DNA of 64,000 nt from NCBI GenBank assembly GCA_963792485.1, contig CAWBWL010000008.1:168871-232870 (forward strand), written 5' to 3'. Of the stretch, positions 33,979 to 36,594 are shown piece by piece. A model generated the notes under the pieces. It did no database searches, had not been told where the DNA came from, and saw only the letters and a program-made list of their open reading frames with translations. This DNA is from an uncultured Alphaproteobacteria bacterium (GTDB taxonomy: Bacteria > Pseudomonadota > Alphaproteobacteria > Rhizobiales > Rhizobiaceae). Positions within the stretch are counted from its first letter, which is position 1. Every line of letters begins with the position of its first letter. A program made the position numbers and the translations under genes.

Positions 33979-35182
33979 ATGGCCTTCCTCGCCGACATCC
34001 TGTCCCGCGTCAAACCCTCCGCCACCATTGTCATCACGCAGAAGGCGCGGGAACTGAAAGCCCAGGGCAAGGACATCATCTCGCTCTCCGTCGGCGAGCC
34101 GGATTTTGACACGCCGGACAATATCAAGCAGGCCGCCATCGCAGCGATCAACCGCGGCGAGACCAAATATCCGCCCGTCTCCGGCATCCAGCCGCTGCGC
34201 GAAGCCATCGCCGCCGAAGTTCAAGCGCGAGAACGGCCTTGATTACAAAGCCAGCCAGACCATTGTCGGCACCGGCGGCAAGCAGGTTCTGTATAACGCG
34301 CTGCTCGCCACCTTGAACCCCGGCGATGAAGTCGTCATCCCGACGCCCTATTGGGTGAGCTATCCCGAAATGGTGGCGCTGAATTCCGGCACGCCGGTGT
34401 TCGTCGCCACAACGCTCGAAAACAATTTCAAGCTCCAGGCCGCCGATCTTGACCGCGCGATCACGCCGCGCACCAAATGGGTCATCCTCAACTCGCCGTC
34501 CAACCCGTCCGGCGCGGCCTACAGCCATGACGAGCTCAAAGCCATCACCGATGTGCTGGTCGCCCATCCGCATGTCTGGATCCTCACCGACGACATGTAT
34601 GAGCACCTCACTTACGGCGACTTCAAATTCGTCACCCCCGCCCAGATCGAGCCGCGCCTGTATGAGCGCACGCTGACGATGAACGGCGTGTCGAAAGCCT
34701 ATGCCATGACCGGCTGGCGCATCGGCTATGCCGCCGGGCCCGAGCATCTCATCAAGGCGATGGACATGGTGCAGGGCCAGCAAACTTCAGGCGCCGCCAC
34801 CATCTCGCAATGGGCCGCGCTCGAAGCCCTGACCGGCCCGCAGGATTGCATCCCCCTCTTCAAAGCCGCCTTTGAGAAGCGCCGGGATCTGGTCGTCTCC
34901 ATGCTCAACCAGGCCAAAGGCCTCGTCTGCCCCAAACCCGAAGGCGCCTTCTACGTCTACCCGTCAGTGGCGGGGCTGATCGGCAAGAAGACCGAAAGCG
35001 GCAAGGTGATCGCGACGGACGAGGATTTCGTCATCGCTCTGTTGGAAGCCGAGGGCGTGGCGGCGGTGCATGGCTCGGCGTTTGGGCTGGGGCCGAATTT
35101 TCGCATCAGCTATGCGACGAGCGATGCGGCGCTGGAGGAGGCTTGTAAGCGGGTGCAAAGGTTTGCGGCGGGGTTGCGGTAG
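33979..35182 (+). pseudogene. aatA: Aspartate aminotransferase (AatA-type, class I), one 1-bp insertion near 34215
   Basis: [46 protein letters not shown] ... [20 protein letters not shown] is canonical. The frame switches at GCCGCCGAAG. Confidence 0.9.
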
Positions 35183-35195
35183 TCGAAAGGGTGCG

Positions 35196-35275
35196 ACGGC
35201 GGTGTGTGGGTCGGCGTTTGGGCTGGGGCCTAATTTCCGGATCAGCTATGCCACGAGCGCCAACCTATCCTGCGA
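35196..35275 (+). repeat. Degenerate duplicate of the aatA 3-prime coding end (would encode ...[17 protein letters not shown]...), directly abutting low-GC DNA
   Basis: Compare 35057-35128 with 35196-35263. GC content drops sharply from about 35264. Confidence 0.75.
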
Positions 35276-35380
35276 ATAATTATCGTATGAATAAATATGT
35301 CATTATCCAACTTGCCTCAATGGCATAATTTCCAGTGCAAATAAGTGTTGTTAAAGCGCAAGAGAATAAATAGCGGTTCT

Positions 35381-36424
35381 TCATTCTAATATCTCGTGAC
35401 AAGCTTCAATCTTGCTTGCATTCGTTTTTGGTTGATCCGATAGTTGCATCTGCATACTGTCTGTTGACTTGTAGCCATGCTCGGCGAAAGCCATTTTGGC
35501 TTTCGTCGTTTTACAAGAGAGCCGCTCGCTGCCGCCCGCCAAAAACCAAGATGTGGTCCATGTGTCCCATGACGGGATGAGGCCTTTATAGCCGATTGTT
35601 TTGAGTTTGCGGGCTCTCTTGTGCGCATGCATCGTCAGTTCATCACTCCCTATGGATGCGACCATTCCCGGGCTGATCATTCGTTGGCCTACTCCCGTTT
35701 TGTAGGTTACGGTCCAGACCTTGTTTGGGTGATGATCGAGAAGATATTTCACTGCCATGCGATCTTCCGCAACGTTCATATCTCTGAAAGCGAATGGCAA
35801 ATATCTGTTCTGACTGAATTGCTCACCCTTAGACCTTCCGCCTACAGTGAGTATCTTGATTACCTCTTTGCTCTCTATGAGGCCCGATTTCAGGAGGATT
35901 GCCGAAACAGTGACAGGGCCAAGTTCGGCGATCACAACCTTCCCGTTGATCTTGATTACGTCGGCTATCTCAGAAAGCATCTTGATGTCATTTGCATCAA
36001 CTTTCGATGCCGCATCAAATGGCATACGCCGCTTCGGCCCGTGGTAAACAGGCCAAGCTCCCAAGTTCAGCTCTTTAAGCCTTACTTTCAAATTAGCATG
36101 AACTTGGCTGGTGCTTGAGCCGCCATTGCCAAAAATAGAGACGATTCCAATGACTTTAATACAGCCCAATTTTTCTAGCCGTGAATACATGTAGAGCGAA
36201 ATTGAGTCATCAATCTCCCCCATACGGGTTGCATCAGAGACTATGAGAGTTGGTAATGTCAGCGCACTTGCACAGCTTGGCTTTGATCCGAAGAAGTGCT
36301 CTTCAAGACCATTTGCGAACGCAAATCCTACATTCCCCGCAAGCATCGCAGCGATAAACAATTTGATTCTGATCACCGGCAAGCCCCCGCTTTGGCGGAG
36401 AAATATCAGCGCCGTCTCATTCAA
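35381..36424 (-). CDS. Secreted hypothetical protein in low-GC islet, possibly nucleoside hydrolase (IUNH)-like
   Basis: Signal-peptide-like N-terminus. LIVSDATRMGEIDD and VIGIVSIFGNGGS loosely resemble the IU-nucleoside hydrolase Asp-cluster and GN motifs. Low GC. Confidence 0.4.
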   Translation of the reverse strand: MNETALIFLRQSGGLPVIRIKLFIAAMLAGNVGFAFANGLEEHFFGSKPSCASALTLPTLIVSDATRMGEIDDSISLYMYSRLEKLGCIKVIGIVSIFGNGGSSTSQVHANLKVRLKELNLGAWPVYHGPKRRMPFDAASKVDANDIKMLSEIADVIKINGKVVIAELGPVTVSAILLKSGLIESKEVIKILTVGGRSKGEQFSQNRYLPFAFRDMNVAEDRMAVKYLLDHHPNKVWTVTYKTGVGQRMISPGMVASIGSDELTMHAHKRARKLKTIGYKGLIPSWDTWTTSWFLAGGSERLSCKTTKAKMAFAEHGYKSTDSMQMQLSDQPKTNASKIEACHEILE

Positions 36425-36537
36425 TCAATGCCAAGTATTACAGAATCACGGCGATGCACCAGCCGCCGCCCGCCAGCGGCATTGATGTGCCAGGATGGGT
36501 CCGTTGTTAAATGGATCATCAGCGGAGCCATCCACCA

Positions 36538-36594
36538 TGGACACGATCACCGCAATCGGACTTGATATCGTAAAGAACAGTTTTGCGGCGGGGC
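36538..36594 (+). mobile_element. IS110-family transposase N-terminal stub (about 18 codons only)
   Basis: MDTITAIGLDIVKNSF matches the hallmark IS110 N-terminus (M..ITxIGIDLAKNxFQVHG). Similarity ends where the repeat block begins. Confidence 0.4.

Follow-up and report, generated by a model that had tools for sequence, protein, structure and literature searches.

The stretch analysed here (the window) comprises 64,000 nucleotides (nt) of an uncultured alphaproteobacterium of the Rhizobiaceae (assembly GCA_963792485.1, contig CAWBWL010000008.1, positions 168,871 to 232,870 of the forward strand), and our subject is the region that begins at the stop codon of its aspartate aminotransferase gene aatA. 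The gene lies on the plus strand at 33979..35182 (Pfam Aminotran_1_2, 1.9e-68), ends with a TAG codon at 35180-35182 and shares 93.7% nucleotide identity with the aatA of L088, one of the loci from close relatives described below. Its reading frame is broken by a 1-nt insertion near 34214, and the extra base is absent in all of the seven relatives compared. Downstream of the stop codon lie a partial second copy of the aatA 3' end, an islet of low guanine-plus-cytosine (GC) content with a single gene, the fossil of an insertion sequence (IS), several repetitive extragenic palindromic (REP)-like repeats and a toxin-antitoxin pair.

Comparison of aatA with the sequence behind it revealed an ungapped repeat of 72 nt with 86% identity (BLAST E 2e-19 within the window). 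Copy 1 (35052..35123, plus strand) lies within the functional gene, 131 to 60 nt upstream of the stop, and copy 2 (35188..35259, plus strand) is an orphan, apparently displaced 3' fragment of aatA. The two copies are 136 nt apart from start to start, and only 5 nt (TCGAA) separate the stop codon from copy 2. An earlier note, made from the letters of this DNA, had described a degenerate copy of the last ~60 bp of aatA at 35196-35263; the repeat itself is confirmed, whereas both its coordinates and the copied part had to be revised, as it is precisely the final 59 nt of the gene that are missing. The junction carries the remnant TCGAAAGGGTGCG (35183..35195, plus strand), which by sequence comparison may be a deletion scar, since 11 nt of it, GAAAGGGTGCG, recur unchanged behind the aatA stop of the related locus L171, where they open a REP.

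The low-GC islet (35260..36442) is the current occupant of a variable slot 3' of aatA. Its GC content is 0.465, compared with 0.625 in aatA and 0.611 on the right-hand side, in agreement with the abrupt drop that had been reported from 35264 over ~1.3 kb. The islet holds one convincing gene, on the minus strand (35381-36424 as maximal open reading frame, ORF), with a GC content at third codon positions of 0.52 versus 0.70-0.85 in the adjacent genes. The islet is followed by the 143-nt fossil of an IS110-family insertion sequence (36443..36585, plus strand), recognised by alignment to IS110 transposases, and by three REP-like repeats with the core CTCAGGATGAGG, two direct and one inverted (36586..36900). 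The fossil consists of the IS110 5' untranslated region and the first 16 codons, cut off by the REP, and a complete DEDD transposase gene is not present in it. The codons read MDTITAIGLDIVKNSF in the window and MDEITTIGFDIAKNVF in a transposase of Phyllobacterium zundukense; an exact 25-mer of the fossil gave 0 matches in metagenome contigs. An 18-nt match to the aatA end at 36579-36596 was considered as the far part of a split tail and rejected (E 0.63, REP consensus); it was treated as chance because it also starts the second REP copy. Beyond the REPs, the toxin HepT (36903-37229, minus strand; Pfam HepT-like, 2.6e-24) and the antitoxin MNT (37219-37506, minus strand; Pfam NTP_transf_2, 9e-14) form the conserved right flank of the slot (36903..37506), which is also found in L171, while L089 has MNT only.

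Behind aatA, the relatives carry quite different DNA. Close relatives were found by protein search (AatA identity 92-97%) and their contigs then retrieved, with aatA 84-94% identical at the nucleotide level; the clade comprises loci with AatA at least 92% identical. Species-level genome and metagenome scans returned only distant aatA loci, with at most 88% protein identity, and a protein-based aatA scan of metagenome contigs only relatives at 83% or below. In all of the nine close relatives checked, the aatA stop or else an orphan aatA tail is immediately followed by low-GC DNA (GC 0.30-0.49). In L083-86 it encodes a 257-residue (aa) membrane protein, in L087 proteins of 153 and 309 aa, in L170 three small ORFs, in L172 an OLD/AriA/GajA-like ATPase (9e-32), in L089 a 545-aa STAND-like protein with a weak STAND match, in L171 proteins of 180 and 380 aa, and in L088 a SIR2-STAND protein followed by a beta-helix protein. 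Neither as DNA nor as protein are the nine slot cargos related to one another, and the window islet is unrelated to the slot cargo of eight relatives. Matches to defence models were found for L172, L088 (SIR2 and STAND) and, weakly, L089, and for neither the window cargo nor four others; by sequence, several occupants look like phage defence genes. When 150 aatA loci were scored, the GC drop after the stop was seen in 6/6 clade loci and in 0/144 more distant ones. The restriction of the drop to the clade, together with the unrelated cargos, indicates a clade-specific, fast-turning accessory slot. Therefore, the region 3' of the aatA stop is a clade-specific accessory-gene hotspot. The earlier impression of a foreign-looking islet is borne out, as nine unrelated cargos in relatives show that it is not conserved in position; the low-GC gene of the window is not a feature that all relatives share there.

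Extra aatA tails were found in the window, L088 and L171, and in none of about 160 aatA loci outside the clade. The functional gene ends with TAG in these same three loci, whereas it ends with TGA in the other relatives, as do the orphan tails. In L088 (coordinates of that contig), aatA with its TAG stop is followed by a DUF4258/DUF2283 toxin-antitoxin pair (2131-2606), a first orphan tail of the full 130 nt (2607-2735), the SIR2-STAND gene and the 143-nt IS110 element with a REP; then come a second orphan tail, starting about 108-111 nt before the stop (5577-5682), the beta-helix cargo and again the 143-nt element with REPs. The whole L088 array spans 2131-8010 (ENA ERZ25039524 contig_57489). 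The order in L171 is aatA (TAG), REP, antitoxin, a full 130-nt orphan tail (1654-1781, L171 coordinates), cargo and HepT'/MNT. On its right side the slot is bounded by the conserved IS110 fossil, in the window as well as in the two units of L088, and REP-like repeats also lie downstream of the cargo in L083, L088 and L171. Each L088 unit starts within aatA and runs up to the IS110 fossil plus REP, so that it resembles a piece of this locus taken from another strain.

The tails differ in how they are placed around the cargo. Their left ends vary (-131, and about -108 to -111; -75 in the carB case below), the junction at -59 in the window is irregular, and the window tail shares the -131 left boundary with tails in L088 and L171. 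Repeats stand on both sides of the L088 toxin-antitoxin cassette, the L088 SIR2 unit and the carB insert; the window islet has an aatA repeat on its left side only, and the cargos of L083 and L089 have no right-hand aatA copy. The duplication had been tied to the low-GC islet. However, in L088 and L171 the two tails flank the DUF4258/DUF2283 cassette and are separated by at least 476 nt of toxin-antitoxin DNA, and the cargo lies beyond the second tail, which suggests that the duplication came with a toxin-antitoxin-bearing acquisition and not with the islet. Based on the shared -131 boundary and the 11 nt matching the L171 REP start, we read the window as a deletion derivative, in which REP and toxin-antitoxin DNA would have been lost between two AGGG(T/C)G-like sequences.

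The codons of the copies point to their origin. In the window, the aatA copies show nine codon differences, six synonymous and three non-synonymous, and the latter cluster at the left edge of copy 2, in or next to the junction. One orphan tail of L088 has the codon AGG where the functional genes of L170 and L089 have the serine codon AGC, while the own gene of L088 has TCG. The bias towards synonymous changes and the AGC-derived codon indicate that the copies diverged within working genes of different lineages. Judged from these codons, the orphan copies come from other aatA alleles and were probably joined to the locus by gene transfer. A breakpoint of homologous crossover was sought along aatA and is not visible, with a uniform identity of 93-97% between the window and L088.

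A similar arrangement was found at carB: the final 75 nt of the gene including the TGA stop (26614..26688, plus strand) recur as an orphan 3' fragment with its stop (29990..30064, plus strand), with 91% identity, both copies ending in TGA and lying 3.3 kb apart. The earlier note had pointed to this second housekeeping gene with a duplicated 3' end, and rightly so. Seven codons differ between the copies, five synonymously and two non-synonymously. The insert between them (26689..29989, plus strand) has normal GC content and encodes a 129-aa ORF and an 879-aa DUF4132/DUF7737 protein. In L083, the carB stop lies 8 nt from sequence matching window position 32619, indicating that the window has 5.9 kb extra (26689-32618). 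The carB case appears, from its sequence, to be the same kind of scar as that at aatA, without shared sequence. The two-gene module itself occupies 26774-29806; its 129-aa ORF has no Pfam match, and the module has no PADLOC match. Within the 5.9-kb segment missing in L083, beside a HigB/HigA pair, lie two tandem tRNA genes (30914-30987 and 30989-31065), Leu(CAG) and Leu(AAG) by ARAGORN (Rfam tRNA 59 and 50 bits). At lengths of just 74 and 77 nt they have a short variable arm, an unusual trait for bacterial tRNA-Leu.

The gene on the islet (35381..36376, minus strand) encodes a predicted exported, cysteine-containing protein of the nucleoside-hydrolase fold. The maximal ORF with its TTG start gives 347 aa and the GTG at 36376 about 331 aa; the GTG is the likely start because homologues have hydrophobic, signal-like N-termini. 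From this GTG the N-terminus reads MIRIKLFIAAMLAGNVGFAFA followed by NG, a predicted Sec-type signal, and all family members share four invariant cysteines, as would suit an exported protein. The description of a 347-aa protein with a signal peptide and weak motifs of inosine-uridine nucleoside hydrolases (IU-NH) holds, with the gene on the minus strand and a Pfam IU_nuc_hydro (PF01156) score of 27.3 bits, below the gathering threshold of 34.2. A profile of the family searched against the PDB gave a best E of 0.005. Modelled with AlphaFold from the family alignment (predicted local distance difference test, pLDDT, 89.6; predicted template modelling score, pTM, 0.89), the protein matched nucleoside hydrolases over its full length in a Foldseek search of the PDB (E 3.8e-12, template modelling score 0.55-0.64, 12-18% identity), and the top 50 PDB matches were all nucleoside hydrolases or nucleoside-hydrolase-like effectors (XopQ, XOO4466). 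The GEIDD, GN and ELGP motifs of the cargo protein align to DD, GN and LGPLT of a solved plant nucleoside hydrolase. Invariant in the family are G53-E-I-D56-D57, N84, E151, D199, N201 and D271, with D48 nearly invariant. The first aspartate motif is altered to D-x-T-x-x-G-E-I-D-D, in which Thr replaces the second Asp of the DxDxxxDD cluster, and the remaining active-site residues may correspond by motif resemblance.

The family is small. A search of 5.8 billion proteins yielded 46 homologues, mostly from marine or soil Hyphomicrobiales (Hoeflea, Nitratireductor, Oceaniradius, Allomesorhizobium). When 1.84 billion cluster representatives were searched with a profile, 13-14 clusters scored above 97 bits, followed by a gap down to 56 bits or less, where the matches are presumably ordinary nucleoside hydrolases. 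Exact-sequence look-ups of the window protein, and likewise of the MNT protein, gave no record. The protein matched none of the defence models, and no viral relatives of the family were found. Homologous genes are compositionally atypical elsewhere as well (GC 0.47 in a locus of 0.58 in L081; 0.57 versus 0.65 in L175), and in L174 the homologue adjoins a phage-type integrase. The L081 homologue, 57% identical to the window protein, comes from the same metagenome as L088 and sits at another locus, again in a low-GC patch. On the modelled structure, the cargo is best described as a rare, well-separated, exported branch of the nucleoside-hydrolase fold.

Several signatures of mobile elements were searched for at these sites. 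The window islet and the carB insert gave no match to an integrase or recombinase (Phage_integrase and others), and neither did the complete cargos of L083, L088, L089 and L171; counted over six complete cargos (0.9-2.6 kb) and the examined regions of the 64-kb window, none encodes an integrase. An att-like core common to the aatA and carB repeats had been suggested and is not supported (BLAST E>0.6; its score was reached by 30/300 and 138/300 shuffles). The ends of the slot cargos yielded no common motif. For the aatA and carB tails, a hairpin of the attC or terminator type was considered and is not supported: compared with shuffles, the L088 tails folded no better (z +0.66 and +0.71) and the window tail only weakly better (z -2.1 on one strand). 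The duplicate is therefore not explained as a conserved terminator. The aatA tail had no match in phage genomes or viral contigs, the toxin-antitoxin cassette none in plasmids, and the carB insert one short, distant match. Possible microhomology at the read junctions amounts to an overlap of 2-5 nt. The "family of elements targeting gene termini" proposed in the earlier note is therefore unproven, given no recombinase, no common core and variable tail starts; a one-sided homologous recombination that displaces the old 3' end accounts for these observations with no element at all.

The absence of a recombinase, core, hairpin or phage match in these searches, together with the locus slices in L088, fits one-sided recombination, and an intact gene followed by orphan 3' fragments from other alleles is the arrangement that defines 3'-end displacement. 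The same orphan-3'-end logic has been published for Rhs and type VI secretion system (T6SS) loci (PMC5361080). We therefore favour, with about an even chance of being right, a recombination scar, and not an active mobile element, at a hotspot beginning at the aatA stop, the scar being produced by one-sided homologous plus illegitimate recombination. DNA from the aatA locus of another strain would enter the cell, recombine homologously inside aatA and be joined illegitimately on the other side, within the last ~130 nt of the resident gene, a process named homology-facilitated illegitimate recombination or "3'-end displacement". The donor would supply an intact 3' end (TAG) and the DUF4258/DUF2283 toxin-antitoxin pair, and the resident aatA tail would be shifted downstream as a non-coding fragment. 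With every further round another slice would be added, which would yield the stack seen in L088. In the lineage of the window, a microhomology deletion would then have removed the REP and the toxin-antitoxin pair, leaving the orphan tail 5 nt past the stop. A later one-sided event, anchored in the IS110 fossil, the REP or the HepT-MNT flank, would have brought in the current cargo and trimmed the orphan tail back to -59.

Several points weigh against 3'-end displacement. The recombination event itself is reconstructed from sequence and was not observed. The junction microhomology is short and unconvincing (GCC/GA, GCG), and eight cargos begin exactly at the stop codon, a precision that would sooner be expected of site-specific integration. 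Three genomes have the -131 boundary in common, which we tentatively attribute to shared descent. Four cargos run off the ends of their contigs, and an integrase could lie in the missing parts. In addition, laboratory tests show illegitimate recombination to be a rare event (PMC5361080, PMC3240628), and by that measure two scars in 64 kb are many.

The main rival to 3'-end displacement is a decayed integrase island, which we hold to be rather unlikely. The repeats would then be the attL and attR of an island inserted at the aatA 3' end with a replacement 3' end, whose integrase and most of whose genes have since been lost. The 130-nt direct repeats that flank the toxin-antitoxin cassette do include a complete substitute 3' end with its stop, and the start of cargo exactly at the stop in eight cases is as such an island would have it; against it stand copy left boundaries that differ and cargo ends that hold no conserved sequence. 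The toxin-antitoxin pair would be a remnant of the island and the L088 array would have arisen by tandem accretion at the same site, which is equally unlikely in our estimate. The clade-specific distribution and the stacked units of L088 agree with an island; the cargos of L083 and L089, with no right-hand aatA copy, do not. The phage-type integrase beside the L174 homologue of the cargo speaks for an island, against which stand the six complete cargos and the examined window regions, all free of integrase, and the want of any phage or viral match resembling attP.

Two further explanations invoke cassettes. Small recombinase-less cassettes repeatedly stacked at the aatA and carB stops, with the gene 3' end as attachment, would amount to an integron-like "gene-terminus cassette array" in this uncultured Hyphomicrobiales clade, a novelty we think improbable. 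Its driver would have to be a trans-acting recombinase or unusually efficient one-sided recombination, for example of gene-transfer-agent DNA, and this too is improbable. Somewhat less probable still are integrase-less cassettes moved in trans, by a recombinase encoded elsewhere, into the termini of housekeeping genes (aatA, carB). Two such sites within 64 kb and a very high slot turnover would suit this explanation, but aatA and carB have no core in common, and no attC-like structure was supported. It would also be improbable, to the same degree, that the arrays are integron-like with gene-tail copies as spacers: the L088 array of small cassettes split by aatA tails has that appearance, while the tail copies vary in length, the cargo ends lack a common motif, and the units end in the locus-native IS110 fossil or REP and not in element-specific ends.

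If the aatA 3' end had been duplicated in tandem on the spot, or by a slip of replication, and had since decayed with no relation to the low-GC DNA, this would explain why the window copies start only 136 nt apart; we consider such an origin very improbable, as divergence is biased to synonymous sites, relatives have at least 476 nt of toxin-antitoxin DNA between the copies, and the serine codon type of L088 copy 2 occurs in functional genes of other lineages. That the architecture arose as an artefact of assembling error-prone long reads into a metagenome bin, to which the many single-base frameshifts in window housekeeping genes might point, is hardly credible, because the same architecture occurs in three independent assemblies (NCBI, ENA, JGI).

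Other observations concern the neighbourhood of aatA and the window at large. Besides aatA (about 34214), split genes were found for carB (23200-26688, three or more ORFs), a glutathione S-transferase (33021-33651), an elongation factor G-like protein (38518-40652) and a GGDEF-EAL protein (40653-43056), and the L088 aatA has its own 1-nt deletion. From the sequence, the single-base frameshifts in window housekeeping genes are probably long-read indel errors and not pseudogenes. The segment 33922-43203, from aatA to the GGDEF-EAL gene, is inverted compared with L083, L084 and L087, in which aatA directly follows the region of the small RNA ar15 and LysR (window 43204 onward). The breakpoint at 33921/33922 adjoins an 82-nt inverted repeat (33743-33824 / 33839-33920, 88% complementary), and at the other lies a match to the alphaproteobacterial ar15 (Rfam RF02345, 45 bits; 43205-43319). 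A second sharp low-GC patch lies at 60001-60500 (GC 0.39), next to a Cro/C1-type helix-turn-helix gene (60484-61218, minus strand) and just before uvrB. In addition, about 30 tandem 27-nt units, encoding a 9-residue repeat, occur at 1186-2016 in a large ORF (1013-3154).

The orphan tails, with their allele-specific synonymous changes, can serve as fossils of single acquisition events, and the locus is thus a natural record for weighing one-sided homologous recombination against site-specific integration. Many accessory and defence hotspots are devoid of mobile-element genes, and this locus bears on the question of how such sites acquire their contents.

The features described here can be compared with several known systems. 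Similar to the IU nucleoside hydrolases (PF01156; RihA/RihB/RihC, IU-NH), the cargo protein shares the fold over its whole length (Foldseek E 4e-12). Unlike them, its family has 12-18% identity, a sub-threshold Pfam score, an altered first aspartate motif, a signal peptide and four invariant cysteines, and it is tiny and well separated. In 3'-end displacement arrays of Rhs, contact-dependent inhibition (CDI) and T6SS loci, the mechanism given by Kirchberger 2017 (PMC5361080), and by Jackson 2009 as cited there, is homology-facilitated illegitimate recombination. Similar to these arrays, aatA is intact and accompanied by orphan 3' fragments, newer acquisitions would push older ones downstream, and the homology would be one-sided with no recombinase. 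Unlike in them, aatA is a housekeeping enzyme gene whose 3' end is not functionally variable, the orphans are only 72-130 nt long, and the site gains unrelated cargo instead of a new toxin tip with its immunity gene.

The aatA site also resembles integrase islands at the 3' ends of genes, tRNA and tmRNA, such as the tmRNA-adjacent defence islands (PMC12595487), in its repeats of the target 3' end, its tandem stacking and a cargo that includes defence and toxin-antitoxin genes. It differs from them in having no integrase or constant core, in the window cargo lying outside the repeat pair and in several relatives having cargo with no second repeat. At the aatA site, neither intI nor attC hairpins, which define integron cassette arrays, were found. 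Similar to the hotspots without mobile-element genes in E. coli (PMC10121019) and P. aeruginosa (PMC10250203), the position is fixed, the occupants vary and some of them look like defence genes (the OLD/AriA-like ATPase of L172 and SIR2-STAND of L088), whereas the window occupant is an exported hydrolase-fold protein with no defence match and the hotspot is confined to one uncultured clade. Taken together, these observations are best regarded as one more case of phenomena already known: an accessory or defence hotspot with 3'-end displacement scars.

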